Shown here: positions 2,142 to 55,062 of the stretch, piece after piece
Position numbering within the stretch: the first letter of the stretch is position 1
Layout: the number at the start of each line of letters is the position of its first letter
Assembly: GCA_964561155.1 (NCBI GenBank)
Contig: CAZLOI010000002.1
Coordinates: 89,629-153,628, forward strand
Direction: 5' to 3'
Source: an uncultured Candidatus Saccharibacteria bacterium
GTDB lineage: Bacteria > Patescibacteriota > Dojkabacteria > J137
DNA: 64,000 bases
Notes under the pieces: generated by a model
The model's database searches: none
What the model was told of the DNA's origin: nothing
What the model saw: the letters and a program-made list of their open reading frames with translations, nothing else
Program-made: the position numbers and the translations under genes

Positions 2142-3791
2142 CTAACGCTTTGTTCCAGCTTTAATTAATTCTAGGAACAATGGGTGCGCTTTAAGCAGGT
2201 AACTTTTATACTCAGGGTGAGCTTGAGTTCCTACAAAGAATGGATGTATCTTACGATCAAGTTCGATAAATTCAACTAGTTCTCCATCTACAGATGTTCC
2301 TGATATCCTCATACCATTCTTTTCAAACTCATCTCTATATACGTTATTAAATTCATATCTGTGCCTGTGCCTTTCAGATATTATAGACTTCTTTACATTC
2401 TTAAAAGCGTCATGCTTCTTGTACACATTAAATACAGTAGAGCCTTCTTTAAGTACACAATCCCATCCTCCAAGCCTTATAGTTCCTCCATATTGTTGCT
2501 TAGCCAAATATTCCTTTTGATTAGGCATTATATGAATAACATTGTTTTTGGTCTTCGCATCAATCTCTTCGGAGTTTGCATCTTTGTAACCTAGAACATT
2601 TCTAGCAAATTCTATAGCCGCCATCTGCATTCCGTAACATAGCCCTAAGTATGGAATCTTATTCTTACGTACATATTCAATAGCTTTAATCTTTCCTTCG
2701 CTACCTCGACTTCCCCAACCTTGAGGAACTATTACGCAGTCCAAGTCATTAAGTTCAGAAAGTTTTGATTTATCCTTTTCAAATACATCTGAAGCAATCA
2801 TTCTAATCTCTGGTTTAACTCCAAGCTCTCCCGCTGCATGCTTTATAGCTTCAAGAACTGATATGTATGTATCTAAGTGTGCAGTACTTCCATGAGTAAT
2901 GTACTTCCCAATTATTCCAATCTTTACATGTTTCTTTGAAGACTTTAATGTCTTAACAAAACTAGCAAGATCATCTACGTTTGATTTCTTAAGTTTCAAA
3001 TTAAATTTAGCAAGTACTTTCTTATCAAACTCTTCGTTATGGAATCTTAACGGTATTTCGTAGATACTTTCTAAATCTGGGTTATCTATAATATTAGTAA
3101 CATCAACGAAGCATCTCTTCGAAATGCTTTCCTTTCTTGGTTCATCTATTGGAATCTCGTTTCTAGTTATTATAAAGTCAGGAATGATTCCTACCTGTCT
3201 TAAGTTTGCCACAGCGTGCTGTGTTGGTTTTGTTTTTAATTCTCCAACAGATTTCAAGAAAGGAAGATAGGTAACCATAATGTAGATTGCTTCGTTTTCT
3301 TTCCCCATCTCTCTTGCAGCATGCAGGAAAGGAAGATTCTCTACATCTCCTGTTGTACCTCCTATTTCAACCATTACGAAGTCTTCATCGGTAATATTTT
3401 CTCTAATCATTGTTTTAATCTCATTTATCATATCTGGGAATATCTCTACATCGCGTCCTCCATAGCTCATTTGCCTTTCTTTGTTTATGATTCTTTCATA
3501 TACCTTTCCTGAAGTAATGTTGTTTCGTTTAGAAAATGTATGGTGAAGAAAGCGCTCGTAGTTACCTAAATCTTGATCAATTTCTCCTCCATCTTCTGTA
3601 ACATAGACTTCTCCGTGTTCTGCTGGACGCATTAGTCCTGCATCGATGTTTAGGTATGGATCAATCTTTACTGCAGTTACTTTGTAGCCTTGTTCTTTGA
3701 GAAGATATCCAATGGAAGCTGTAGCGATTCCTTTGCCTACGCCAGAGAGTACTCCACCGCATACAAATATAAATTTAGGATTTTTCGACAT
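2142..3791 (-). CDS. pyrG: CTP synthase
   Basis: N-terminus KFIFVCGGVLSGVGKGIATASIGYLLK; a glutamine amidotransferase C-terminal domain (GLCYGMQ); 549 aa. Confidence 0.95.
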   Translation of the reverse strand: MSKNPKFIFVCGGVLSGVGKGIATASIGYLLKEQGYKVTAVKIDPYLNIDAGLMRPAEHGEVYVTEDGGEIDQDLGNYERFLHHTFSKRNNITSGKVYERIINKERQMSYGGRDVEIFPDMINEIKTMIRENITDEDFVMVEIGGTTGDVENLPFLHAAREMGKENEAIYIMVTYLPFLKSVGELKTKPTQHAVANLRQVGIIPDFIITRNEIPIDEPRKESISKRCFVDVTNIIDNPDLESIYEIPLRFHNEEFDKKVLAKFNLKLKKSNVDDLASFVKTLKSSKKHVKIGIIGKYITHGSTAHLDTYISVLEAIKHAAGELGVKPEIRMIASDVFEKDKSKLSELNDLDCVIVPQGWGSRGSEGKIKAIEYVRKNKIPYLGLCYGMQMAAIEFARNVLGYKDANSEEIDAKTKNNVIHIMPNQKEYLAKQQYGGTIRLGGWDCVLKEGSTVFNVYKKHDAFKNVKKSIISERHRHRYEFNNVYRDEFEKNGMRISGTSVDGELVEFIELDRKIHPFFVGTQAHPEYKSYLLKAHPLFLELIKAGTKR

Positions 3792-3907
3792 AGTTGAGGA
3801 TGTTAAAACTATGTATTTAATCCTATTAAAGTTTAGGTCTTTTGAACAGGTGCTATAGTAAATATTTTTAATGGAAAGCTCGTATTCGCTATAACTGTTG
3901 TATAATC

Positions 3908-4555
3908 TTGGTTATGTCAGACAACAGTTTAGATCAACAACAAAACCTATTAACTTTATTACCTGCTAGAAAGGTTAGCTTGTCTCCTGAAGACAGAGAG
4001 ATTGAAACTTCGAAGCTTGTAGCTTTGCTTAAGGATGTAAACGCACATTTACAAGAAACTCAAGGTCTTCATCATTACGATTGGTACACAGAGAATGAAG
4101 GTATGAGGGTTAAAGAGAAGATTGCCAAAGGTAATACGTATATTATTGAATCAGAGAGCGGAGAAGTTATTGCTGCTTTTTCTATTGGAAGAGAAAAGCT
4201 ATTGTACCCAGGAGATGCTCAGTTCGATGACCGAGAAGCATATTATCTTTCTTTGATATGTGTTTCTCCAAAGTATCAAGGACATGGTATTGGATCTAAA
4301 CTACTTAAAAGCATTGAAAGCATTATTGCAATTGATGTTAAAACAAGAGGAGACGATAGATACTTGATTCGTTTTGATGCAAGACAGGAGTATGAGGAAC
4401 TAATTAAGTTCTATAAGAAAAGAGACTATGTTGAGATCGGTACTGTTACTGAGGACGAAGGTGAGCATTATATTCTTTTTGAGAAACTCACTTATATTCC
4501 AGATATTCCTCAACCATATAAGAAGTATCATCTCCCACAATCAAAGGAAGCTTGA
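3908..4555 (+). CDS. GNAT-family N-acetyltransferase with N-terminal extension
   Basis: An acetyl-CoA binding-like motif YQGHGIGSKLL lies in the C-terminal half. Confidence 0.45.
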   Translation: MVMSDNSLDQQQNLLTLLPARKVSLSPEDREIETSKLVALLKDVNAHLQETQGLHHYDWYTENEGMRVKEKIAKGNTYIIESESGEVIAAFSIGREKLLYPGDAQFDDREAYYLSLICVSPKYQGHGIGSKLLKSIESIIAIDVKTRGDDRYLIRFDARQEYEELIKFYKKRDYVEIGTVTEDEGEHYILFEKLTYIPDIPQPYKKYHLPQSKEA

Positions 4556-4590
4556 AGTCGAGTTAGCTAGTTAGTAGTTATATATCTTCC

Positions 4591-5043
4591 CTAGTTCTCA
4601 CAGATTTGAGTTTCTGAAGTGTACTTTTGTGTAAAGCTAAATTCATTCTCTGAACCGATGCATTCCTTCAATTGTTGTTCCCAAAGTTTCTTTAATGCCC
4701 AACCTAGTTTCCCGACTGTAACTAGTTCTTCACTATCTAGGGTTTTATATTGTAATTGTAGATCCAACATTTCAAGTAGCATTGCCATTTTTGTTCTTCT
4801 TTCGTCTGGATTCAAATACTTAGCTCGTATTTGAAGTATTTCAATTAGCATTCTATATCCTTGTGGTGTAAGGGAGCTAATGTCGTATTCAATTAGGTGT
4901 TGTGGGTGTACTGATTTCAACCATTCTATTATTTCGTTGGATGTATTGCTTTCTGTTTCTGCTTTGTCGAAGTATTGGTTATTTTGCATATTAGTTGAAT
5001 TTCTCTTTGTCTTTGAATTCATTTGACCAAGAGAATGCAGCAC
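4591..5043 (-). CDS. hypothetical protein (true start is probably the internal Met near 4989, just after the stop of the upstream ORF)
   Basis: A long ORF that overlaps 4991..5344 by 53 nt in another frame, with no recognisable domain. Confidence 0.35.
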   Translation of the reverse strand: MLHSLGQMNSKTKRNSTNMQNNQYFDKAETESNTSNEIIEWLKSVHPQHLIEYDISSLTPQGYRMLIEILQIRAKYLNPDERRTKMAMLLEMLDLQLQYKTLDSEELVTVGKLGWALKKLWEQQLKECIGSENEFSFTQKYTSETQICEN

Positions 5044-5344
5044 GTTTTGCGAATTGAATAGCTACTTTTAGGTGTTCGAATGATAGTCCTTTGTCTTTAC
5101 ATTTTTTAGCTATGTGTCTCCACATTCTTCTTTCAACACTTTCTTCAAGACAGTATGGGTACTGCGATCTTAGTTCAAGTATGTATATTATGAAGTATGC
5201 AATTCTTGGGTCTTCTACCTTCTGATATATTAGGTCCTGTAGTTGAGGTGGAACTACGTTACTTGTACCATTTTCTACTATGTTTTGTATCTTCTGGTCG
5301 TACCAGTTTAGTATTCTATTTGTATTGTTTCCATTACTATCCAT
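4991..5344 (-). CDS. hypothetical protein
   Basis: An ORF with no recognisable motif. Confidence 0.35.
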   Translation of the reverse strand: MDSNGNNTNRILNWYDQKIQNIVENGTSNVVPPQLQDLIYQKVEDPRIAYFIIYILELRSQYPYCLEESVERRMWRHIAKKCKDKGLSFEHLKVAIQFAKRAAFSWSNEFKDKEKFN

Positions 5345-5408
5345 GCACGGATTATATCAAACCTGTCTATATTTGAAAGGTTTTATGTTAAAATTACACG
5401 ACGATTAT

Positions 5409-5485
5409 GGTGGCCATAGCTCAGTCGGTAGAGCGCCAGTTTGTGGAACTGGATGTCGTGGGTTCGAGCCCCACTGGCTACCCCA
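5409..5485 (+). tRNA. tRNA-His (anticodon GTG) with encoded G-1 and 3' CCA
   Basis: G-1 then a GTGGCCA/TGGCTAC acceptor stem with one G-U pair; D-arm AGCTCAGTCGGTAGAGC; anticodon stem CCAGT/ACTGG with loop TTGTGGA (anticodon GTG); T-arm GTGGGTTCGAGCCCCAC; discriminator C73 pairing with G-1; CCA encoded. It is close to bacterial tRNA-His. Confidence 0.9.
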
Positions 5486-7100
5486 TTTGAATAACCCCCA
5501 TTTTTCCGTAAGTTTTGAAAGGCTCATTAAGCTCATAGGATATGACTTTACCTCCCTTTATAACAAAGTTTAAAAACACATTTCTGACTAGTTGATCAAT
5601 TAGGTGTAAATCTCTGGTTGATTTGATTACCTGTTCAGCATTATCAAAGGAGTTTAAGAAATTTTCATAAGGTATAATATTCTCGTTGCTATTTGCTTCA
5701 AGTCTGATTTTTTGTTCTTCTAATTTCTCTCTTTCAATATTCAATTCATAAATCTCATCACTAGTCTTTTTAATTTGACCATTAATTGGTTCAGCTTTAC
5801 TTGGCTCAATATTTCTTAAAGAATCAGCCAAAGCATCTAATCTATTTTTCAAGTTTTCGATCTTATTGTTGATATTTGATAGAGTTGAGTTAATAGACTC
5901 TGCTTGAGTTCCCCTAACCTGTGAATAATCATTCTTGAAATTCTCATATAATTCTTTGGTGATATTCAATTTAGATGAGATTACTTCAATTATAAAATCC
6001 ATTAGAACTTTACCTCTTATTGCGGATTTAATGCGTCGATTTTTATTTGAAATACATTCTTCGTCACTACAACCAACATAATAATACCGTTCACCTGTCT
6101 TGCTTCTAGCTTTGTAAGGAGTCATGTAATGATTACAATAGCCACACTTTGCCATTTTCTTGAATAACACATTTTTTATCTCCTGAGTTGGGTTAAATGC
6201 TCTTCGACCATCTATAGTTTCTCTAACATTAATAAACTCCTTAAATGTAATCATAGGCTCAAATTTGGGGTCTAGAGCTTTAAGATCAATGACATTATCC
6301 CCATGAATAAATATTCCCGCATAGAAAGGATCGGCAAATACCCGAGAACGTGTTGTGTCATTTAAATTTTTATATCCATTGTCGAATAGATATTTGCTAA
6401 TCATTCCAAGGGTTTTTCCTTCTGCAAGCATTAACCATGAGTTTCTGAAAATAGGGAAGAATTTAGGATCAGGTCTGTAAAATTTATCTACAATTTGATA
6501 ACCATGTTTTAATTTACCCATTGATTTTCCCTCACCAACCGTTCTATCGCTTCCTCTTGTAGTGTTAACTGAAATTCCATCCGAGTAATTCTTAGCCAAG
6601 ACAAATTGAATACCTAATGCCATTTTTCCACTTGGATCATTATTAAATGTGTATGATGAAAACTTTAAATCAGCTATCTTGCCTTCATCTAGCATATCAA
6701 TAATTACGCCTGCATCTCGCATATTTCGGGCTAGACGGTCTGGATGCCATGAAAGAATACTATTATATAGTTTGCCCTCTTCAATAGTCTTTAAAACTTC
6801 AGCAAATACACTTCGCATATTGGATTTATGGGCTGTTTCTTTCTCCTCTAAAATTCCATAAACCTTTAGATTATTGCGTATCGCAAATTCTTTACATTCC
6901 GCAATTTGATCGGCAACTGACCTTTCTTGTTTATCTTTACCTTTGGTAGAACGACGAGCATAAATTATATAAGTTTTCTCAACTTCAGTATTCACAATCC
7001 CTCGTCTAATTAGGTTTGAAGCTTTTAAAATGTTTGCATATTCTAAAACTTTTTCTTTATAGAAGTCTCTATCTTCGAATTGTTGTGAAATATTGCTCAT
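5478..7100 (-). mobile_element. large serine recombinase (integrase); the C-terminal codons overlap the tRNA-His 3' end
   Basis: An N-terminal resolvase domain with the catalytic Ser in YARRSTKGKDKQERSVADQ and SWHPDRLARN; a recombinase domain; a zinc ribbon CGYCNHY...YYVGCSDEEC; and a C-terminal coiled coil (LKNRLDALADSL). 540 aa. Confidence 0.88.
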
Positions 7101-7119
7101 GAGCAGATATTATCATTCT

Positions 7120-7311
7120 TTACAGGAAAAAAGCACCCTTTGCATCTTTAAGAATATATGGATTTTTAGAAGAAGTTTTCGGAAGAGAATTTCTATTTAC
7201 TTTGATAGACTTAATGCTTTGAAATGTTGAAATGACCTCAAAAAGAGATAATTGTTTTAAATTATTCTTAATTATTCTTTTAGTTTTTGGCTTTGAATTT
7301 TTGACCTTCAT
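7120..7311 (-). CDS. small basic protein upstream of the recombinase, a possible recombination directionality factor
   Basis: 63 aa and Lys/Arg rich (KPKTKRIIKNNLKQ), sitting 20 nt upstream of the recombinase start on the same strand. Confidence 0.25.
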   Translation of the reverse strand: MKVKNSKPKTKRIIKNNLKQLSLFEVISTFQSIKSIKVNRNSLPKTSSKNPYILKDAKGAFFL

Positions 7312-7381
7312 TATGCCTTAGTTTATGCAAAAAGCATGAAACTATCTTTTTTGAAGGGAGATAAAGGGATTTAAGGGGAGA

Positions 7382-8020
7382 TTATAGTGTTATTGGATTT
7401 TTAAATTTTATTGAGGATGTCTTATCACTAATATCAAAAAAAGCAGCCTTTAAACCACGTCTGAAGCCCAAATTTTCTACTATTTTATCGAAGCTTTGAG
7501 TAATTTCCTTATGAGTTTCTTCTTCTATTTCCTTTTTAGAAAATAGTTTATTTGGATTGTCATAAAGGAATATAAAAATAGCTTCATTAGTTCCGCCAAA
7601 ATCGGGTTTAGCAATGTCTATTTTTCCGTTCAACATTATTCTTCTATCTGAGTTAAATTCAATAAAAAAGTTATTAATTGCTGGTAATTTCTCCTCACTA
7701 AGGTATTGCTTATGCTTCAAAAACTCTTTTTCAAAGTAATCCACTTCAATATTACTCACCTCAATATAGTTTTCTGGTTGACCAATGTGAAGATAAAACG
7801 ATTTGAGAATAGGAGAGGGTTTACCAATATACACATTTTCAACTTTTAGCTTGTGAAGGTTTTGAAACTGAATCAATATATCTCTTATTTCATGTTCTTC
7901 TATGGAATTGAGAGGTCTTTTCTCAGTAAAAAGTATAAACTTTCTATTCTCAATGTGTAATTTCTTAGCCTCAAGAATTGAATGAATTATAATGGCTTTC
8001 TTTTCTTCATACATCAACAT
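7382..8020 (-). CDS. hypothetical protein (island cargo)
   Basis: A 212 aa ORF with no recognisable domain. Confidence 0.4.
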   Translation of the reverse strand: MLMYEEKKAIIIHSILEAKKLHIENRKFILFTEKRPLNSIEEHEIRDILIQFQNLHKLKVENVYIGKPSPILKSFYLHIGQPENYIEVSNIEVDYFEKEFLKHKQYLSEEKLPAINNFFIEFNSDRRIMLNGKIDIAKPDFGGTNEAIFIFLYDNPNKLFSKKEIEEETHKEITQSFDKIVENLGFRRGLKAAFFDISDKTSSIKFKNPITL

Positions 8021-8111
8021 AATCTATTTTTTAAAAACATTGAATTATACTTCTGATTAGAAATATAGCGCAAATCATAGTAGAATCAATCAATAATTTC
8101 GAATTTATAAA

Positions 8112-8390
8112 ATGGGTAAAAATCAAGGACTGAACAATTTAACTAAAGGTTTTAATAGAAGGCTAACTCAAAGTGAAGTTTCTAGAGGTTATCTTTTTAT
8201 TTCAAAAGATAGAGCAATATTGAAGATTTTAGACGAGGGCTTTAAAGTTAGAATAGGAGAGATTGAGCTGAAGAATAAAAAATTGGATAGTTCAGGAAGA
8301 ATCACTATTGGGAAGGTGTTATCTTCAAAACTTGCAGAAAAAGAAATTAGACTGAAATTAGAGAAGAATAATCTTCTTATAACGTATTGA
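8112..8390 (+). CDS. small hypothetical protein, possibly AbrB/MazE-like
   Basis: 92 aa; GRITIGKVL resembles a swapped-hairpin DNA-binding motif. It is the only plus-strand gene in the island. Confidence 0.25.
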   Translation: MGKNQGLNNLTKGFNRRLTQSEVSRGYLFISKDRAILKILDEGFKVRIGEIELKNKKLDSSGRITIGKVLSSKLAEKEIRLKLEKNNLLITY

Positions 8391-8413
8391 TATTTCAATA
8401 CTCACAATTATAA

Positions 8414-9175
8414 TCATGTATTCTGAGATTTGAATAACTCCACTGGGTTTATTTTAAATTGAAGCATTTTTGCTGACTCTCTTCCTCCGTCACCACCTTT
8501 TCGTTGCATAGTGATTTTTCCAATTCTTAAATTCCCTTGCTTTGTAATTGTCACATCTCCATTTCCAAACAAATTTAGTGCATGATTTATAGATTTTAAT
8601 GTCCATTTTGTAGTTTCATCTATTTTCAAAGCTACCATCATCCACCCCGCAGATAATTTTCCTCTTCCTTTTATAATATCGCTGACAATAAGAAATTTAT
8701 TTTCTGTGAAGAAGTCTAGAATATCATTCCTCACATCTTCATTTAATTCATCCAAGAACATTCTTCGTGAGTCTCTTACATCTGTTTTATTTGGTGCAAG
8801 CTCACCAGTAAAGTATTTTAAACCTGTTGCAATACTCTCAGGTAAAGTCCACATTTCAATATATTTCTCTACTTTCCTTTTATCTATTTGATTGAATCCC
8901 TGAGGATTGCTCACTAATTTAATAGAGATATTTTCTGCAGAAATTGCCTCTTTCAAAAAAATAGAAATTTGAACTTGAACGTCAGTTTTAAATCCATGAA
9001 TTTTAATCGCAAGTATCTTCTCAATCTCTTCAAGTTTGTAGCCCATTATAGATAACCACTCTTTGGCGTCTTCATCTTCTACCCAATTATTAAATTTTTC
9101 AACAATATCATCTTCATTACTAAAACCTGCCTTTGCAGTTTTTGAACCTAGTAGAATTAAGTCTTTTGTGTCCAT
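8414..9175 (-). CDS. candidate Type II restriction endonuclease (partner of the adjacent m5C methyltransferase)
   Basis: 253 aa, placed immediately downstream of the methyltransferase with its start abutting the methyltransferase stop. No recognisable family; the call rests on position alone. Confidence 0.4.
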   Translation of the reverse strand: MDTKDLILLGSKTAKAGFSNEDDIVEKFNNWVEDEDAKEWLSIMGYKLEEIEKILAIKIHGFKTDVQVQISIFLKEAISAENISIKLVSNPQGFNQIDKRKVEKYIEMWTLPESIATGLKYFTGELAPNKTDVRDSRRMFLDELNEDVRNDILDFFTENKFLIVSDIIKGRGKLSAGWMMVALKIDETTKWTLKSINHALNLFGNGDVTITKQGNLRIGKITMQRKGGDGGRESAKMLQFKINPVELFKSQNT

Positions 9176-10156
9176 TTAATTTAAAGTAAGAATTATTTGT
9201 TGAAATATATTTTTTAAAACATTTATTGCCACACTATTTCCGAACTGCTTATAAGCTTGCGATTTACTTACTACAATTTTATAGTCCTTTGGGAAACCCA
9301 TAATATTTGCACATTCCCTAGGGCTTAGTTTTCTAATTTTACCATCAACTAAGTAAGCACCTGTTTTACTGGCAATCCCACCACCATGAGCCGACAAAGT
9401 GATTGCATGCCCTAAATCGCTGTAAATTCGTTCACCTTGACCTCCATTATTAATTGTTCCTAATCTTATAGGTTTTTGTGGGTAATTGCCAAAAATATCT
9501 GGTTCTACCGCTTTATCATTCATTTTAATTCTTATATCTGTTCTTGTAATTTCATATGGACTATTATCATCATTCAATTCTAAATAATCTCTTAGCTTAG
9601 TATTAATATTAAGAGGGGAGGGAAATTTAAATTCTTCTACTCCTAAATCTTTTCTAAATCCAATAATATAAATTCTTTCTCTTGTAGTTGGCAATCCATA
9701 ATCTCCTGCATTTAAAACTTGATGAAAGACATTATAATTTAATTCCTTGAGGGTATTAGTCACGGTTTCTAAAGTTTTTCCATTATCATGTTTTGCAAAG
9801 TTTTTAACATTTTCTAAAAATAACACTTCTGGTTTATGGTGTTTTACAATTCTCGCAACATCAAAAAAGAGAGTACCTCGTGTATCGTTAAATCCCAATC
9901 TTTTGCCCGAAATACTGAAAGCTTGACAAGGAAAGCCACCACATAAAATGGAATGCTTAGGAATAGTTTTTTCGTCTACTTTCGTAATATCCCCATCAGG
10001 AGTTTCGCCAAAGTTTGCTTGATAAGTTGTTTGTGCCTGTTTATCCCACTCATTTGAATATACACATTCAAGACCAAAAGAATCTAATGCTATTCGGAAG
10101 CCCCCTATACCTGCAAATAGGTCGATATATTTAGCTTTTTTAACATCAAATTTCAT
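9176..10156 (-). CDS. DNA (cytosine-5)-methyltransferase
   Basis: Motif I FAGIGGF, motif IV GGFPCQAFS, motif VI FLENVKNF and motif X QFGNSV. Confidence 0.9.
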   Translation of the reverse strand: MKFDVKKAKYIDLFAGIGGFRIALDSFGLECVYSNEWDKQAQTTYQANFGETPDGDITKVDEKTIPKHSILCGGFPCQAFSISGKRLGFNDTRGTLFFDVARIVKHHKPEVLFLENVKNFAKHDNGKTLETVTNTLKELNYNVFHQVLNAGDYGLPTTRERIYIIGFRKDLGVEEFKFPSPLNINTKLRDYLELNDDNSPYEITRTDIRIKMNDKAVEPDIFGNYPQKPIRLGTINNGGQGERIYSDLGHAITLSAHGGGIASKTGAYLVDGKIRKLSPRECANIMGFPKDYKIVVSKSQAYKQFGNSVAINVLKNIFQQIILTLN

Positions 10157-10219
10157 ATGGATTTATATTACGTATAACAAAGAATTATACATTATAATAT
10201 TTAAATAAATTCTAGAGGT

Positions 10220-10654
10220 CTAAGGATTTAATTTTTGTTTCTTTAATTCGTTTAAATCATACTCACTTTCAAATTCTTCAAATATGAAATTCAAATCTTG
10301 AGTTTCTTCATCTTTCTCATTACTTATTCTTGCTTTGCTTACAAGTCTATCAACCCAATCCAATAGGAATTTATCACTTGAAAAGGATTTGGATACATAT
10401 TCAAATGCAACTAAATCCTTTACCTTAAACTTCTTTTTATTCTTTTTCATTTGCTCCTTTAATTGTTCAAATTCATCTATAGTTAATTCCTGATATTCAA
10501 TTATTTTGTCTAAAAATATCTGAGATTGTTTTTTCCTTTGCCAACCTTCAGCCTTAGAGCTTGGGCTAGGCTGATTAGTTGTGCTGAATTGAGTAGATTT
10601 ACCGTTTTTTACGCCGTTTTTCATATGATAATTATAAATTGCAATCTTTCTCAT
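10220..10654 (-). CDS. hypothetical protein (island cargo)
   Basis: A 144 aa ORF, charged and Lys-rich, with no recognisable domain. Confidence 0.35.
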   Translation of the reverse strand: MRKIAIYNYHMKNGVKNGKSTQFSTTNQPSPSSKAEGWQRKKQSQIFLDKIIEYQELTIDEFEQLKEQMKKNKKKFKVKDLVAFEYVSKSFSSDKFLLDWVDRLVSKARISNEKDEETQDLNFIFEEFESEYDLNELKKQKLNP

Positions 10655-10669
10655 GAAGAAAATAAAAAT

Positions 10670-12907
10670 TTATACTTTCACAGGAACTTTGGATTGTAAT
10701 TTATTGTACAAATTATTTTGTGCGATGATATTATACAAATCAATCCTACTGTCTTCATCTGGGCTAATATCTTGAACAGTGATTACAAGAGCATAATTTT
10801 GTTGGTAATTTACGTCAGTAATCCCTCTCGTTGTCATATCCATCCATAACTCCCAATCACCTCCTTGATAACTTTGACAATGTTTTTCAAAGCTAAGTAT
10901 TGGATTCCATCTTTTTCTATATTGAAATTTAGATTTTTTTATAAGATCGCCTCCAATTAAGTTACCTTTTGAATTTTTATAATGTAAATTCAACTGAATA
11001 TCCACAGAACAATAATCTTGAAGTGCTGTATTTGAAACTTCGGGTAGATATACTAGAGTACCTCTTATTTTTATTTTTTTACCTTTACCCTCTAATTCTT
11101 TAGGCACGGTAAATTTTAATTTATGCTTTGTATATTTTGCCGTTTTAGAATCGACAGCAGGCTCTCCAATTAAACCTGTAAAAATAAAAGTTGCCGATGA
11201 ATTGACACAATCAATAGCACTTGTTAAATCGGGGATTCCAAATCCAAGAAGTCGATTTAGTTCAAAACCCATCCATTTATCATCTGCCTGAATTGAATAG
11301 GAAGCTGAATGAATAAGTAATGCTTTTACTAATTCAGCAGGAGGTTCATTCCATTGTCTTGTTGTATCTAAATATGCAAAGAGTTGAGCAGCAATTTGGC
11401 TTACCAAGGGTGCTGCAAAACTTGTTCCGACGGCTTCAGCTATACCATCTTCTTTAATTGATAACCCTTTAACACCTATTCCCCCATATTGGTCATATTT
11501 ATCAGTATTCCCTCCAAAATGTACCAAATCAGGTTTAAAATCCCCTATTAAACCTGACCTTGTAAAAGGAGAAGGTTCATTTATATTTGCAATTGATCGA
11601 GTTGAATGTGTATCTGCTACTGAACCAACTACTACAGTGTTGAGACTATCCGCTGGAGGAGTAATAATGGATTCCTTATCCAAAAAATATTTTGGATATT
11701 CTCCCGTTATTTCCTTTAAATTACCTGAGGAAATTACAAATAAAACATTATATTTTTTTGCTAATGAATCAAGCTCCATTGTGATGAAGCTGTGCTTAGG
11801 TCTAGAAGGCCAATCATAATCACCATTATTAATTGACAGATTGAAAACTTTAGCCGTTTTATAATATTTTTTGACAGCAGTCGTAATCGAATCTACTAAA
11901 AATTTTTCTTTTATAAGTGTATGATTGCTAAGTTTTACATCAATCACTTTAACTTTGGCATTTAATTGACCCTGTTGAATCTGATCCTCAATATCATTAC
12001 CAAAAATTGCTCTTGAAGCAACAAAAGTTCCATGCGTTAAATCCTCTGAATCCTTATCGTTAATACAATCTAATTGATCTATTACGAGTCCATTTAAAAC
12101 TTTTAAATTGGCTATGCCCGAATCTAAAATGACTACTTTGGCGTCAGAATCAGGCTCTACAACTTCAATATCTGATAGCTTGTAATTGGATGAGGGTATT
12201 TGAGATATTCCAAAATCAAGTGATTTTTCAACTCTAAGAATTGGATTATTAGGAAGTGGATTTGTAATTTCTTCTACTAATTTATGGTATAGATCTCCAT
12301 ATAATAATTTGGCTCCAGCATTTGAGGTAAAAAAGCTCAGATTCGTTCCATACTTTTTGTTTATAATTCCACAAATCTTATTTCCCTCAAATTCAGGAAT
12401 AGAGTTGTAAAGATATATAAATCCAGTGAATTTTGATAGTTCAAACGTATCTGAATCTATAATATCCTCCCTATTTAATGGGATAAACTCTTCTATAGTA
12501 GATAGAAAGGCTCCGTCTCTGGGATTTGATTGCAAACTCAGTTGAGATATATTTTGCTGAAAAGACTTAAGATTTTTTACATTTGTTGTCGCTAAAAAAG
12601 TTGTTTCATTTTGTTGACCCTGAAAATCAATATTGAATTTTTTTGTAAAAGCCGTGGGTTGTGCGGATTTACTTGTAGCTTTTTTATTTAATTTAATTTT
12701 GAAAAAGACTGTATCTTTATTCACCGAATAATCACTTACGTGTTGCTCAGAAGAAAATATCAATTTTGATAATTCTGTAGTTCTTTTTCTTTTGAAGTTA
12801 TCAAAATCATTAGCTTTTACAAATAATGTAGGTTCACCACCACCACCTTTTTTATCTTGAATTAAATTACTGTTTGGAATTACAAATACAGGATTATTTA
12901 TTATCAT
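10670..12907 (-). CDS. subtilase (peptidase S8) with large N- and C-terminal extensions and no signal peptide
   Basis: Catalytic triad contexts VVILDSGIAN (Asp), HGTFVASRA (His) and GTSFAAPLVS (Ser). About 250 aa of unique sequence precede the catalytic domain and about 230 aa follow it. The start overlaps the AAA gene stop by 14 nt. Confidence 0.85.
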   Translation of the reverse strand: MIINNPVFVIPNSNLIQDKKGGGGEPTLFVKANDFDNFKRKRTTELSKLIFSSEQHVSDYSVNKDTVFFKIKLNKKATSKSAQPTAFTKKFNIDFQGQQNETTFLATTNVKNLKSFQQNISQLSLQSNPRDGAFLSTIEEFIPLNREDIIDSDTFELSKFTGFIYLYNSIPEFEGNKICGIINKKYGTNLSFFTSNAGAKLLYGDLYHKLVEEITNPLPNNPILRVEKSLDFGISQIPSSNYKLSDIEVVEPDSDAKVVILDSGIANLKVLNGLVIDQLDCINDKDSEDLTHGTFVASRAIFGNDIEDQIQQGQLNAKVKVIDVKLSNHTLIKEKFLVDSITTAVKKYYKTAKVFNLSINNGDYDWPSRPKHSFITMELDSLAKKYNVLFVISSGNLKEITGEYPKYFLDKESIITPPADSLNTVVVGSVADTHSTRSIANINEPSPFTRSGLIGDFKPDLVHFGGNTDKYDQYGGIGVKGLSIKEDGIAEAVGTSFAAPLVSQIAAQLFAYLDTTRQWNEPPAELVKALLIHSASYSIQADDKWMGFELNRLLGFGIPDLTSAIDCVNSSATFIFTGLIGEPAVDSKTAKYTKHKLKFTVPKELEGKGKKIKIRGTLVYLPEVSNTALQDYCSVDIQLNLHYKNSKGNLIGGDLIKKSKFQYRKRWNPILSFEKHCQSYQGGDWELWMDMTTRGITDVNYQQNYALVITVQDISPDEDSRIDLYNIIAQNNLYNKLQSKVPVKV

Positions 12908-14018
12908 ACTTGCTGTTTAAAATATTAGATAAAGTTGAATCAGGAATCCCAGTTATATTTTCTAAATATTTAAAAGTAAACAATTTGTCATCATTCTTTC
13001 TAAGAATCTTAACTATTTCTTTTAAGTTTTTTCTGTCCATCTTATCTTTAATATTATATTTGTTGGTTTGCAATTTAAATTCTGCAACATTTTTTAATAA
13101 TAAATTGTCTAGATTTACTTTTTTATCATTTAAGATCCACATTCTTAAACTTCTATTTATTAAATTTCTTAAAGATGATCCAGAAATTTGTCCACTAATC
13201 TCAACTAGTGTAGAAATATTTTTAATCATATAATCCTTTAAATATAATTCAAAAAACTTTCTTATAGCTTCTTTATCAAACAAATCTAAATTTAGTGTAT
13301 ATGTAAATCTTCTTTTAATTGCAGAATCCAAAAGATGGTCATGGTTAGTTGCTGCAACAAGAATGGTTGAGCTATTAAGTTCATCTATGTTCTGCAAAAG
13401 AACTGTCACAACTCTTTTTAATTCACCTAATTCATTAGAATCATCTCTTTTCTTTCCTAATGCATCGAACTCGTCCAAAAATAAAATGCACGGAGATTTA
13501 TTCGCTTCAGTAAAAACTTTTCTGATATTTCGACCCGTATCACCTAAATATGAAGATATAATTCCATCCAAATAAACATGAAGTATGGGTAAATTAAGTT
13601 CTCCCGCTAAAATATAAGAAAATAGAGTTTTTCCTGTTCCTGGTGGACCATAAAGTAATATTTTATTTTCCAAGGGCACATTATTCTCTATTAATAGTTT
13701 TCTCTTCTTAAAGTTTTTAATTACTTCATCTAAAAGTGAAGTGTTTTCTTCATTTAGAATGATATAGCTTTTATTAATTTCAGACTCCCTAAATTCAAAT
13801 AACTTTGAGTCTGAATTATTTATACTAGAATTTGAAAAATCCAAATCTTTATTTTCAGATTGAGGTATAGACAGTAGCTTTCTTAAATTTTTTGCTAAAT
13901 TATATTGCCCTGTATTTTCAATATCTGAAATGTATTTCTGTAGAAATTTATCAGCAGTATGTATATTCCCTTTCTTATACATTTCTGCTACTTTAAGAAG
14001 AATGTCAGTTTTAGTCAT
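12894..14018 (-). CDS. classical-clade AAA+ ATPase with MIT-like N-terminal helical domain
   Basis: Walker A LLYGPPGTGKTLF, Walker B ILFLDEFDALG and a sensor-1 region ATNHDHLLD. It has a helical N-terminus of about 100 aa. Confidence 0.85.
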   Translation of the reverse strand: MTKTDILLKVAEMYKKGNIHTADKFLQKYISDIENTGQYNLAKNLRKLLSIPQSENKDLDFSNSSINNSDSKLFEFRESEINKSYIILNEENTSLLDEVIKNFKKRKLLIENNVPLENKILLYGPPGTGKTLFSYILAGELNLPILHVYLDGIISSYLGDTGRNIRKVFTEANKSPCILFLDEFDALGKKRDDSNELGELKRVVTVLLQNIDELNSSTILVAATNHDHLLDSAIKRRFTYTLNLDLFDKEAIRKFFELYLKDYMIKNISTLVEISGQISGSSLRNLINRSLRMWILNDKKVNLDNLLLKNVAEFKLQTNKYNIKDKMDRKNLKEIVKILRKNDDKLFTFKYLENITGIPDSTLSNILNSKYDNK

Positions 14019-14417
14019 AAATATATCTTATCCCAAACCTAGTAAAACTTCAAACTTTGGGATAATTCGAGCTGATATATATATGGGATGATATTAATTC
14101 TAGTCTATCTTTATCCGATGATAAAGTTTAAAGTCGTCATGTCTAAGATAATGTTAAATAATTAATTCTATATTATAAAATCAATTTCCTTGGTTTTACC
14201 TCCCTTCGCTTCGATAACTGCCAATTCATACCTATGCTCAACAATAGTGATTTGGTTCAATACAGTCAAATCAATCCAAGATTCCCAATTTGAAAAGTTT
14301 GAAGTATAATTCTGTGTTGACCCCAAAATGAAACATCCTAAACTACACAAAGTTATGTAGCTTTGACATATCCCTAATATATTTTTAAAATAGAGCATTA
14401 CTTATTAACGTATCTAC

Positions 14418-14813
14418 ATGGTTGAAGTAAATATAGTTGCTGTTTTAGTTGCTGCTTTATCCGCTTTCTTTCTAGGCTATATTTGGTACACAGTAGTGTT
14501 TGTGAAACCATGGAAGGAAGAAATTGGAATGGGAGAGAATAGCGATGCTGTAGCTCCAAATCTGGGTATGTTATTAATAGGATCATTTGTTCTAGAAATA
14601 ATCATGGCATTTGTTATGGCACGATTCTTTATAGGTAACGCAGATGCTTTGGGAGGATTAAAAGCAGGTTTCTTAATTGGATTACCAGTTGTTGCTTTTG
14701 CATTCGGAGTTAATTACTTATTCGAAGGAAGATCATTAAAGCATTGGTTAATTAATGCTGCATACTATACAGTTGTATTCTCTGTAATGGGATTGATACT
14801 AGGAGCAATGTAA
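14418..14813 (+). CDS. DUF1761-like small membrane protein (paralog of 54640..55062)
   Basis: Four transmembrane segments; shares GY(I/L)WY...K(P/K)W(K/M)(E/K)E(I/V)G with the 54640..55062 product. Confidence 0.5.
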   Translation: MVEVNIVAVLVAALSAFFLGYIWYTVVFVKPWKEEIGMGENSDAVAPNLGMLLIGSFVLEIIMAFVMARFFIGNADALGGLKAGFLIGLPVVAFAFGVNYLFEGRSLKHWLINAAYYTVVFSVMGLILGAM

Positions 14814-14841
14814 ATCTTTCATTATCCATGGGATGATTGTT

Positions 14842-14880
14842 AACACTTAGAGTAGAGGACTGCCCTAAGTGTTTTTTGTT
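14842..14880 (+). terminator. intrinsic terminator candidate
   Basis: AACACTTAG...CTAAGTGTT stem followed by TTTTTT, 29 nt after the stop of 14418..14813. Confidence 0.45.
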
Positions 14881-15268
14881 TCTCTTAGAATACTTTGATA
14901 CTAGTTATATCAATTGTGAATGATCCTCCATAATAGAATCTAGTGTGTATTGTATTTGTTCCTTGAGTTAGATTGAAACCTATAAATGCTGATAGATTGA
15001 GATTCTAAAGGGATTTAATATTTGGAGCTTTACAAGCATATGTGTTTTGTAATTATTGCATTTTGCCCTAAAGTCTACTCATATTCCAAGAATGACACAT
15101 ACAAATTAAAAGTGATACATGATTACAAAAATGGATTGCAATGTTGAATTTATCTATGCCAGACAGTTGTTATTGACATACATAATAAGTATATCTATTA
15201 TGTGAATATACTAAACAAGAACCAAACTTTTATACGTTACCATAGATATTTCTTAAGCAATTCTTCAT

Positions 15269-17020
15269 ATGAGATCAAAGAAATACCTAATACTTGGAGT
15301 CACAATATTCCTTGGATTAAGTAGTGTTGCAATATTTTTAATAATGAACCAGAACCTTGCGATAGAGGATTCAGAAGCAAGTAACTCAGCAGATTTGGAA
15401 GAAGCTGTAGCTGCATGGCCTGCATCCTCAGACTTAGTAACACTAGCCGCAGTTGGAACAAACCAGCAGACTTGTTCGGATTTAAGTGGTCCAGCTGTGT
15501 TGGTAAGTAGCGATCTTCCTACATTCTTAAAGAAAGGAGAAGCTTTCACTGGAACATTAAAAATATTGAACTGTTCTAAAGCTACATGGAAAAAGTATAA
15601 CGGGAGTAGAGGACATAACTTTGGTCCTGTTAATCCTCAAGAGAACAATACATTTGGTCCAACTAGATATGCACTACCAAATGATGTAGCACCAGGAACT
15701 TCCGTAGATCTACAAGTAACTGGAACAGCGCCTTCTACAAACGGAAGTTACGTATTTCAACTAGGATTAGTTAAGGAATCTGTAAAATGGATTACACCAT
15801 ATCTATCTCCTCATATATTTATCGTTGGAGACTACAAGACATGTGATACAGCAAGAGCATTAGTGAATACAACTCAGGATGCAAAGCAAACACTACAAAC
15901 ATGTATAGATGCAGCTCCAGTGGGATCTACAGTTGTACTACCAGCTGGTGTGTACACAGTCTCAGGTCAAGTTCGAGTTAAAAGTACAATCAGTTTGGTG
16001 TCTGAAAAAAGTGTATCTACGCGAGCTGCTTTTACATGTGATACAGAACCCTACACCAACTGTGCTGTTATAAAGGCAGGAGCTACCTATAGGGGATCTG
16101 GAACTACAGAGCCAGAAATAGCTGTGCTAAGAGTTGCGAGTGAAAACGGAGGAAATGTTGATAACTTTACAATGGTAAATATTGTAATCGATGGAAACAT
16201 TACAGAACGGCTCGCTGCTTCAACTGGTAAGTGTCTTGCTGGAGTATCTAGAGACTTTAATATCTCTGCAAACAGCTATGGATTTAAAATGTTTAGAAGT
16301 GCATCTGTTAATGCAGTCTGCGGTACTGGACTATCTCTTTTTGGAGGAACATCTACCGAAGGTGGAGGATCAGTGATCGCATTCAATCTATTTGCTAAAA
16401 ATGGAACACATCACCAAGATGACGGCAATCATGGACCATGGGCAGATGGTGCATCTATTGTAGGGAGAAACATGTATGTATTCAACAATACTTTCTATAA
16501 CAATACAGATGTTGATCTAATCTTCTGGTACAGCAAAGGAAGTCATATACATTACAATAGACTAAACCACGACGATCAAGACTACTACAGTTATGCAACA
16601 TTAATGTTAACTTCAAATGTTAATGATCCAATTGGAACAGATCACTCTGGAACTGTAATATCATTTAATAAAATAAAGTGTGGAAGAGCATGTGGTTTTG
16701 GAATAGTTGTTGGAGGAAAGAATTGGTCTCCTGATGCTACAAAATCTTTAGGAGGAACAGTTAAGAACAATACAATTCAAGGAACATATCAAGCAATAAG
16801 TGTTGCTGGTGCAGGAACAGCAGAAGCTCCAGTCATTATCTCTGGTAACAAGTTTGTGAATACAAGATATATTAAGAACAGTTGTGGAGAAACAACAACA
16901 GACCTTGTATTTAACCCAGGTAGTGTAGTCTCACATGACCTAACTAGTAAAGTTAATAGCAAGGGTTGGAACTGTACCTTACCTAGCTGTAACTTTGATC
17001 AGAACTTCTGTGCGAAGTAG
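15269..17020 (+). CDS. secreted or anchored right-handed parallel beta-helix protein (pectate-lyase/tailspike-like fold)
   Basis: An N-terminal signal/anchor (ILGVTIFLGLSSVAIFLI), then repeated N/G-rich turns typical of PbH1 repeats (NNTFYNNTDVDLIF, GTVKNNTIQG, ISGNKFVNT). Confidence 0.55.
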   Translation: MRSKKYLILGVTIFLGLSSVAIFLIMNQNLAIEDSEASNSADLEEAVAAWPASSDLVTLAAVGTNQQTCSDLSGPAVLVSSDLPTFLKKGEAFTGTLKILNCSKATWKKYNGSRGHNFGPVNPQENNTFGPTRYALPNDVAPGTSVDLQVTGTAPSTNGSYVFQLGLVKESVKWITPYLSPHIFIVGDYKTCDTARALVNTTQDAKQTLQTCIDAAPVGSTVVLPAGVYTVSGQVRVKSTISLVSEKSVSTRAAFTCDTEPYTNCAVIKAGATYRGSGTTEPEIAVLRVASENGGNVDNFTMVNIVIDGNITERLAASTGKCLAGVSRDFNISANSYGFKMFRSASVNAVCGTGLSLFGGTSTEGGGSVIAFNLFAKNGTHHQDDGNHGPWADGASIVGRNMYVFNNTFYNNTDVDLIFWYSKGSHIHYNRLNHDDQDYYSYATLMLTSNVNDPIGTDHSGTVISFNKIKCGRACGFGIVVGGKNWSPDATKSLGGTVKNNTIQGTYQAISVAGAGTAEAPVIISGNKFVNTRYIKNSCGETTTDLVFNPGSVVSHDLTSKVNSKGWNCTLPSCNFDQNFCAK

Positions 17021-54639: not shown

Positions 54640-55062
54640 CTATCTAATTAATGTAGCAAGAAGACCAGCTACAGTTATAGTTAAGATTTGATATCCTGCA
54701 TCGATAGCATAAAGAGACCATGATCTCTTTGAAAATATGTATGTAGTTAAGAAAGCTGTACCTACATATCCAACTCCGATTAATAATCCAAGGGCAACAC
54801 CATGCAGAGCATCTGTAACATTCAACATATTAACTAGAGCAGATGTAACAGCTCCCATTAAAAGCGCTGCTAGGAATGTATAGAAGTATCCAATACCTGG
54901 ACCATTTCCAATTTCTTGCTCAGTTAATCCGACTTCCTTCATCCATTTCTTAGAGAATATTGGGCCGTACCAAAGGAATCCGATCACCATGTTGGCTACT
55001 CCAACAGCAAGTGCTGCAAGAAAATTTATAGGCATAGATTGTAGATAATAAATAATACTCAC
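54640..55062 (-). CDS. DUF1761-like small membrane protein (paralog of 14418..14813)
   Basis: Shares IGFLWYGPIFSKKWMKEVGL with GYIWYTVVFVKPWKEEIGM of the paralog. Confidence 0.5.
   Translation of the reverse strand: MSIIYYLQSMPINFLAALAVGVANMVIGFLWYGPIFSKKWMKEVGLTEQEIGNGPGIGYFYTFLAALLMGAVTSALVNMLNVTDALHGVALGLLIGVGYVGTAFLTTYIFSKRSWSLYAIDAGYQILTITVAGLLATLIR

Follow-up and report, generated by a model that had tools for sequence, protein, structure and literature searches.

An anti-phage defence island at the 3′ end of tRNA-His in a Patescibacteria genome and the predicted splitting of its serine integrase gene by integration

The window analysed here, a 64,000-nt stretch of contig CAZLOI010000002.1 from an uncultured Candidatus Saccharibacteria bacterium, holds at positions 5486–14325 what is very probably an 8,840-bp integrative element with anti-phage defence genes, inserted at the 3′ end of a tRNA-His gene by its own large serine recombinase (LSR). 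All coordinates follow the numbering of the window. As judged from comparison with related elements, the core of the attachment site of the excised form (attP) lies within the open reading frame (ORF) of the recombinase, 51 codons before the stop, and integration splits the gene. By profile and motif matches, the 540-aa protein encoded by the integrated copy keeps all recognised catalytic and DNA-binding domains.

The limits of the element are defined by strains that lack it. An exact look-up in public assemblies of the protein encoded by the DUF1761 gene (14418–14813; Pfam), the first gene beyond the distal island end, returned five short contigs from five sequencing runs. In four of them (L090–L093, from four different runs; L-numbers designate the contigs compared and P-numbers database proteins) tRNA-His stands directly upstream of the DUF1761 gene and the island is absent, and three of these four also hold the 117-aa gene located on the other side of tRNA-His. 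Homology of L090–L093 to the window stops on the left at 5485 (96.2–99.0% identity) and resumes on the right at 14320 (99.4–100% identity), the left and right matches overlapping by the six bases ACCCCA. The breakpoints at this shared hexamer thus delimit the inserted DNA as 5486–14325 or, equivalently, 5480–14319. An initial annotation made from the sequence alone had proposed an island of about 9 kb at tRNA-His and had suggested a search for the empty site in related genomes. The island was recovered at 8,840 bp and is absent from near-identical genomes, and the empty site was found as expected, with tRNA-His followed directly by DUF1761 between flanks 96–100% identical. The distal boundary had been bracketed between 14018 and 14418, which includes 14325, and a short core without a long repeat had been correctly anticipated, but the direct repeat that had not been recognised does exist, as the 6-bp ACCCCA. 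The high identity of the right flank to the empty-site strains implies, as far as sequence divergence can tell, a recent insertion. In the same strains the left flank (2443–5485) is less conserved than the right flank (14320–15729).

tRNA-His (GTG), located at 5410–5485 on the plus strand with its CCA encoded, is the single tRNA identified by ARAGORN in the window, in agreement with Rfam RF00005 (67.8 bits). Its G-1 is encoded at 5409 and the gene constitutes the left (B) arm of the attachment site. The core ACCCCA corresponds to tRNA positions 71–76, comprising the final two acceptor-stem bases, the discriminator C and the encoded CCA, and the tRNA is intact and identical to the empty-site allele of L090–L093. 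Because the element and the tRNA gene share the core, the insertion leaves the gene whole, with one copy of the core at either end. Copy 1 (attL) occupies 5480–5485 and copy 2 (attR) 14320–14325, both on the plus strand and both defined by the breakpoint homology of L090–L093, with the same attL core found in L084, L086, L087, L088 and L102. Directly before the attR core lies the element-side (P) arm motif (AAAAGTTTGAAG, 11 nt, GTTG; 14293–14319, plus strand), which recurs in related elements. Identity between the two flanks does not extend beyond the 6-bp core. Three probes of 20–22 nt, covering the tRNA 3′ region and the downstream junction and allowed up to 3 mismatches, revealed no second copy of the tRNA-His end in the window, and the classical displaced-tRNA-fragment model was dropped on this result. 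The lack of a longer tRNA-end repeat in the window agrees with the action of a serine recombinase rather than that of a tyrosine integrase; Pfam likewise detected no tyrosine integrase or phage-integrase domain in any island ORF, the sole recombinase being of the serine type. A generic repeat search over 5.3–17.5 kb returned only AT-rich repeats at chance level, and metagenome scans with a 35-mer from the tRNA 3′ half and with the family-level attP pattern gave no match. The island had also been described as more AT-rich than its surroundings, and its GC content is indeed 0.304, against 0.350 for the remaining window, which is below all 408 other windows of 8,840 bp (minimum 0.339, mean 0.348, standard deviation 0.005).

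The recombinase is encoded on the minus strand at 5478–7100, and was characterised in its integrated (truncated) form of 540 aa with Pfam, PHROGs, an AlphaFold2 (AF2) model and Foldseek. The 3′ end of the gene overlaps the final 8 nt of tRNA-His, and its TAG stop codon is made up of core base A5480 and the tRNA bases T5479 and C5478. The Resolvase domain (PF00239) is matched with an E-value of 1.2e-18 (68 bits, cut-off 23.3), while PF13408 (Zn_ribbon_recom; 23.6 bits, cut-off 25.3) and PF07508 (Recombinase; 18.4 bits, cut-off 21.1) fall slightly under threshold, and the full-length phage-integrase family phrog_95 is matched at 2.7e-55. The catalytic motifs YARRST (Y47-x-R49-x-S51, with S51 as nucleophile) and DRLARN (D121-R122-L123-x-R125) are invariant in 46 homologs, as are the residues of the zinc ribbon Cys-319, Cys-322, Cys-344 and Cys-349 among homologs. 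In well-studied serine integrases the nucleophile is found near residue 10–12 (for example S12 of PhiC31); residues 1–44 of the present protein (6969–7100) form a family-conserved N-terminal helix ahead of the catalytic domain, hence the position of S51. The AF2 model (mean predicted local distance difference test, pLDDT, 74.7) comprises the catalytic domain, the recombinase domain, the zinc ribbon and a 90-residue coiled coil formed by helices 382–430 and 433–472, with block-mean pLDDT of about 61–92. The best Foldseek matches to this model are the full-length serine integrase-DNA complex 9dxd, Bxb1, PhiC31 and A118-type enzymes (E-values 4e-15 to 1.5e-9), and the alignments to full-length serine integrases span 548–574 columns (4e-15 to 8.5e-12). 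Its conserved motifs and predicted fold identify the protein as a true member of the large serine recombinases, with the catalytic residues preserved.

When the attP of the window is rebuilt by joining the distal arm to the recombinase end, the recombinase ORF continues past codon 540 to a total of 590 aa. The detached 3′ segment, 51 codons and a stop, is located at 14168–14323 on the minus strand, 8.8 kb from the recombinase and beside attR, and is in frame with codon 539 only in the excised (attP) form. The 76-aa ORF at 14168–14398 is therefore no ordinary gene but mostly a detached integrase 3′ end, its last 51 codons deriving from the recombinase and its first 24 from the host flank. The location of the attachment site within the integrase gene had escaped the initial annotation. 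The same reconstruction for seven elements (the window, L082-B, L084, L085-1, L086, L087 and L088) yields an ORF of 585–594 aa in every case. The integrated forms encode 535–558 aa, except in one tandem case where the ORF reads into the arm of the neighbouring element. Among the seven elements the core is read in three frames, and no tail is open in any frame but that of the recombinase to which it belongs; thus, indels on one side of the core are compensated by others across it. An alignment of the tails covers about 51 residues and shows the shared motifs (W/Y)IDL..L, YELAV(I/V)E and a terminal IDF(I/K)(I/L), and two comparisons gave ratios of nonsynonymous to synonymous substitution rates (dN/dS) of 0.44 and 0.27. 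No methionine at all is present in 8 of 12 tails, which therefore cannot be ordinary ATG-initiated genes. In addition, the long form occurs naturally in P0006 (590 aa), encoded at the tandem junction of L085, and in P0032 (593 aa; contig L101), whose ORF crosses the TGGGGT core and ends in ...VDFIL. In a limited literature search, an attP within the gene of the integrase was met with for archaeal tyrosine integrases only and for no serine integrase.

Database homologs of the recombinase were followed to their contigs, which revealed a family of elements at the same target. Recombinases 39–54% identical to that of the window end on the tRNA-His ACCCCA in L084, L086, L087, L088/L089 and L102, and a second ACCCCA is found upstream, in the sense of the recombinase gene, at 7–10 kb in L084–L087 and at 5.5 kb in L102. 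Ahead of the distal core stands a conserved arm, AAAAGTTT(G/A)A(G/A)G, 11 nt, GTTG, which is present with the same spacing in L082/L083, L084, L085, L086, L087 and the window and is weak in L088. The elements thus have a conserved backbone, in which the distal arm and the tail segment make up one end, and the 212-aa gene (in several elements), the 63-aa gene and the recombinase the other. These backbone genes had not been recognised in the initial annotation. The cargo between the backbone ends is variable and by its predicted functions mostly defence-related, consisting of IetAS in L082, type IIG/ISP-like restriction enzymes, a methylase and a HEPN protein in L085, a methylase and an NgoFVII-like endonuclease in L087, and an OLD-family ATPase with an HNH protein in L088. 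The window IetAS pair (10670–14018) and the pair at the same position in L082 (3677–7135) are only 25–40% identical, whereas the two recombinases are 81% identical and the distal arm DNA 77% identical, which indicates that cargo has been swapped on a stable backbone. The divergence of the two pairs suggests either cassette replacement or very fast divergence of defence genes. Two elements are arranged in tandem in L082 (1103–9884) and in L085 (10001–21773), and the tandem junctions have the attP configuration of distal arm, core and recombinase 3′ end. The recombinase-proximal flank of L082 holds a degenerate look-alike of the tRNA 3′ end (ttccaaatcccatcccatccagtACCCCA) and not a full tRNA-His.

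Many database homologs of the recombinase carry C-terminal tails that resemble translated antisense tRNA (GERTRT, GVEDGT). In a viral contig collection, which holds only distant recombinase relatives (at most 33% identity), a recombinase 33% identical to that of the window adjoins tRNA-Gly (GCC) in L103 and L104 (6001–7620). The tRNA-Gly relative and the antisense-tRNA-like tails together make tRNA targeting appear to be a property of a wider recombinase clade, as far as these sequences indicate. From host to host, the empty sites show no conservation of their downstream arms, and target recognition may rest mainly on the tRNA half, which would explain the tandem arrays. Elements with a 69–73% identical tail segment also adjoin arrays of predicted immunity proteins (Imm44, DUF6572, DUF4265) in L095–L100; no tRNA was found in a scan of L095–L097, and the short L095–L100 contigs stop before the recombinase-proximal end.

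Recombination took place within the 6-bp core shared by the element and the tRNA-His gene, duplicating the core and preserving the tRNA. Beyond this, the following mechanism can be proposed. The circular form would express the full-length enzyme of about 590 aa, which would carry out integration, and integration would remove the tail, leaving a resident copy that makes the 540-aa isoform. Loss of the tail would alter the activity, stability or directionality of the enzyme, so that the enzyme made would report the state of the element. Excision, if it occurs, would probably need an accessory factor, for which the conserved 63-aa protein is the obvious candidate. Tentatively, and with somewhat less than even confidence, this would represent a new directionality control for large serine recombinases, in which the form of about 590 aa made by the circle is integration-competent and the 540-aa isoform is inactive, unstable or excision-competent; the archaeal 'suicidal' tyrosine integrases would then have an equivalent among bacterial serine recombinases. 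As part of this same proposal, the target of the elements, the CCA end of tRNA-His, would exist in any genome encoding that end.

Several observations weigh against the insertion or the proposed control. No excised circle or attP junction of the window's own element was observed, and an exact look-up of the recombinase sequence in public assemblies found no other contig, which places it in one genome only. The inverted repeats for which the initial annotation had advised a search around the attachment sites amount to weak symmetry in the arms, the best centres showing 7–11 matches of 24. The frame-matching evidence represents about three independent frame states and not seven. In the AF2 model of the 590-aa form the recombinase is modelled well and the tail has no confident structure (pLDDT 30–43). 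In the window lineage, moreover, an ATG lies across the core and gene callers report the tail as an ORF of its own, 52 aa long, so that it may be translated separately there. This last point leads to the possibility that the distal small ORF is an independent gene, such as a small regulator or a directionality factor with its start codon over the core, whose continuity with the recombinase is incidental. An ATG (ATG GGG TCA) is placed on the core in the attP configuration of the window, L082 and P0132/P0133 lineages, for which 52-aa proteins are reported by gene callers, and at the tandem junction of L082 the upstream recombinase, LSR-A, is out of frame with the distal ORF and stops after 11 codons. 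The mismatch is, however, expected because the distal arm there belongs to LSR-B and not to LSR-A, and an independent gene is rendered improbable by the 8 of 12 tails devoid of methionine, by the tails always following the frame of their own recombinase while the core is read in three, and by the natural proteins of 590 and 593 aa.

A more serious contender, though still rather unlikely, is a decayed remnant fixed in the genome, with an integrase disabled by truncation and an immobile element, as in the 'suicidal' archaeal integrases. The integrated gene is indeed without the conserved 51-aa tail, and both the failure to detect a circle and the occurrence of the recombinase in a single genome would be expected of such a remnant. 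Yet no frameshift or other damage affects the 540-aa ORF, the tail segment or either core, every recognised domain is retained in the truncated protein, and the right flank, 99.4–100% identical to the empty-site strains, implies recent insertion. A prophage remnant or phage satellite, to which the match of the recombinase to the phage integrase family phrog_95 could point, is highly improbable, since no other PHROG match and no structural, packaging or replication genes were found in the island and the viral contig collection yielded only the distant relatives of at most 33% identity. Finally, gene order around pyrG is rearranged in L001 and L002, which might suggest an ordinary variable chromosomal segment produced by deletion or rearrangement in other strains, with no site-specific insertion. 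Breakpoints located exactly at the 6-bp repeat and the tRNA 3′ end in four samples effectively refute this explanation, and with the recombinase abutting the junction and the same architecture recurring at tRNA-His in unrelated hosts its probability is negligible. Site-specific insertion of the element by its own recombinase thus stays the favoured explanation of the island.

Among known systems, the element appears in its behaviour closest to the cassettes related to staphylococcal cassette chromosome (SCC) elements. SCC, SCCmec and SCC-like cassettes of staphylococci are small, non-conjugative and moved by the Ccr large serine recombinases, and SCC-like cassettes insert at a single position where a housekeeping gene ends (3′), form tandem arrays and are enriched in anti-phage defence (PMC11470126). 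The window element resembles them as a defence-rich serine-recombinase cassette at a gene 3′ end with tandem arrays in its relatives. In contrast, its target is tRNA-His and not rlmH, its recombinase is no Ccr ortholog (49.9 bits with the CcrB model, cut-off 900), its host belongs to Patescibacteria and its att core lies inside the recombinase gene. This last feature recalls the SSV-type ('suicidal', type I) archaeal integrases, in which attP is located in the integrase ORF, integration into a tRNA gene splits the integrase gene to opposite ends of the element, and gene disruption has been proposed as directionality control (PMC7253208). The attP core within the integrase ORF and the gene split by integration are common to both; however, the archaeal enzymes are tyrosine recombinases and both of their fragments are inactive, whereas here a bacterial large serine recombinase loses only the last 51 of about 590 residues and its N-terminal fragment keeps all known domains. 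In mycobacteriophage integration-dependent immunity, attP also lies in a coding sequence, and integration at a tRNA 3′ end shortens the protein, with a stop codon formed at attL from host bases (PMC8092301). Both the shortening and the host-derived stop codon at attL have their parallel here, but in the mycobacteriophages a repressor is truncated and the integrases are tyrosine enzymes, while in the window the serine integrase itself is truncated. Classical tRNA-gene islands of the Islander type employ tyrosine integrases and leave a displaced tRNA fragment of tens of bases (PMC4383910). The island shares with them the insertion at a tRNA 3′ end, the functional tRNA gene, accessory cargo and skewed base composition, and differs in a shared core of 6 bp only and in having no tyrosine integrase.

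The island itself is an ordinary kind of object, another recombinase-borne defence cassette. What goes beyond the ordinary is its target at the CCA end of tRNA-His, the family spread across Patescibacteria and, most notably, a serine integrase gene that is split by its own reaction. The element provides a precisely bounded mobile defence island in Patescibacteria, for which the empty site, the two att junctions and a set of related elements are available, and adds a clade of large serine recombinases that targets tRNA genes (tRNA-His and, in a distant relative, tRNA-Gly), a niche usually occupied by tyrosine integrases. These elements also illustrate the exchange of defence functions in very small genomes, with backbone and site constant and cargo swapped, sometimes in tandem arrays. 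If the two isoforms of the recombinase behave differently, the arrangement would offer a new and simple route to a directional serine integrase, of interest to engineers of genome-writing tools and to those seeking genetic tools for Patescibacteria.

All ORFs of at least 60 aa between 5478 and 14398 are encoded on the minus strand except one of 92 aa (8112–8390, plus strand), in accordance with the strand pattern described to about 14.4 kb in the initial annotation. The recombinase had also been correctly placed at the overlap with the last 8 nt of tRNA-His and just downstream of a small basic ORF, the gap between the two being 19 nt. This ORF (7120–7311, minus strand) encodes a 63-aa protein with an isoelectric point of 10.8 and is conserved in related elements, tblastn matches being found upstream of the recombinase in L082 (twice), L084, L085, L086 and L087 with a conserved C-terminus KNPY-x-LKD-x-KG-x-F-x-L. 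It has no match in Pfam, PHROGs, NCBIfam or PADLOC, and its position makes it a candidate accessory or recombination directionality factor. The adjacent 212-aa backbone protein (7382–8020, minus strand) has counterparts of 38–43% identity in the corresponding place of L082, L085 and L086, and no family match in Pfam, PADLOC, NCBIfam or PHROGs. The basic 92-aa ORF on the plus strand, located between the 212-aa and endonuclease genes, has no family match in Pfam or PHROGs, and the related loci contain no homolog of it. It could encode a small regulator of the restriction system or be spurious.

The cytosine-5 methyltransferase with an adjacent endonuclease named in the initial annotation proved correct. 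The endonuclease (8414–9175, minus strand) belongs to the R.HinP1I family of type II restriction enzymes (PF11463, E-value 2.6e-78, 262.7 bits; PADLOC REase_II, 1.5e-96) and is directly abutted by the cytosine-5 DNA methyltransferase gene (9176–10156, minus strand; PF00145, 9.4e-100, 334.6 bits; PADLOC MTase_II, 5e-120; TIGR00675, 323.8 bits, cut-off 100.65). By these matches the two genes are a standard HinP1I-like type II pair. Its specificity is presumably GCGC, as taken from the family name. Avoidance of GCGC, considered as a mark of long residence of the restriction system, was not found in the window (25 sites observed, 24.9 expected), which fits a recent arrival of the system and proves nothing. 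The following gene encodes a 144-aa protein without recognised domain (10220–10654, minus strand), which is probably, given a 53% identical homolog at 11788–12114 of L085, another recurrent element gene. In L085, this homolog stands first among the genes of the second tandem element.

The subtilase and AAA+ genes reported in the initial annotation are present and adjacent, but their identity as a defence pair had been missed. The 745-aa S8 subtilase (10670–12907, minus strand; PF00082) is IetS-like, the PADLOC IetS profile matching with an E-value of 1.3e-96 over protein residues 4–744 and profile positions 5–748 of 749, while NCBIfam IteS_antiphage gives 1e-71 and 242.2 bits, below its equivalog cut-off of 900. 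The 374-aa AAA+ ATPase (12894–14018, minus strand; PF00004) is IetA-like, with a full-length PADLOC IetA match at 4e-95 and an NCBIfam IteA_antiphage match at 1.8e-87 and 293.9 bits, below the equivalog cut-off of 510, and the 3′ end of its gene overlaps the start of IetS by 14 nt. The pair is thus assigned by profile, at family level, to the IetS/IetA (Gao_Iet) anti-phage defence system. Full-length profile matches and adjacent co-directional gene pairs are shared with the known IetAS and HinP1I systems; the IetA and IetS scores differ in lying under the NCBI equivalog cut-offs, and defence activity is predicted from sequence. No conjugation, replication or virion genes were detected in the island with Pfam and PHROGs.

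The genes flanking the island are by Pfam housekeeping or ordinary, and include CTP synthase (pyrG), a GNAT acetyltransferase and a copper P-type ATPase. The chromosomal paralog of the DUF1761 gene that had been noted at 54.6 kb was confirmed at 54658–54981 on the minus strand, with 32% identity. A flanking 583-aa protein (15269–17020) gives just a weak Ig-like match in Pfam, so that its 'beta-helix' label is unconfirmed. The CTP synthase finds its closest matches, at 86% and 80% identity, in two metagenome-assembled Patescibacteria/Saccharibacteria genomes, all others being at about 50%, and the host is accordingly a member of the Patescibacteria (CPR). In the two nearest species-level relatives, L001 and L002, the locus is rearranged, and they are therefore unusable as empty sites. 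In L001 (7162–10708), whose pyrG is the 86% identical one, pyrG stands 143 bp from a homolog of the 583-aa gene, the whole block from GNAT to DUF1761 including tRNA-His is missing there, and DUF1761 is located elsewhere on the contig. In L002, about 9 kb of unrelated genes (proteasome-like, HEPN, DUF4209, VanW) separate tRNA-His from DUF1761. At the tRNA-His locus of L002 (8990–9360), the 3′ end of the gene is repeated directly over 19 nt (gagccccatcttccacccc) about 140 bp downstream, and immediately upstream of tRNA-His there is a pseudo 5′ fragment of the tRNA. By their sequence, the repeat and the pseudo fragment resemble scars left by previous integrations of another type, in which the core was longer.

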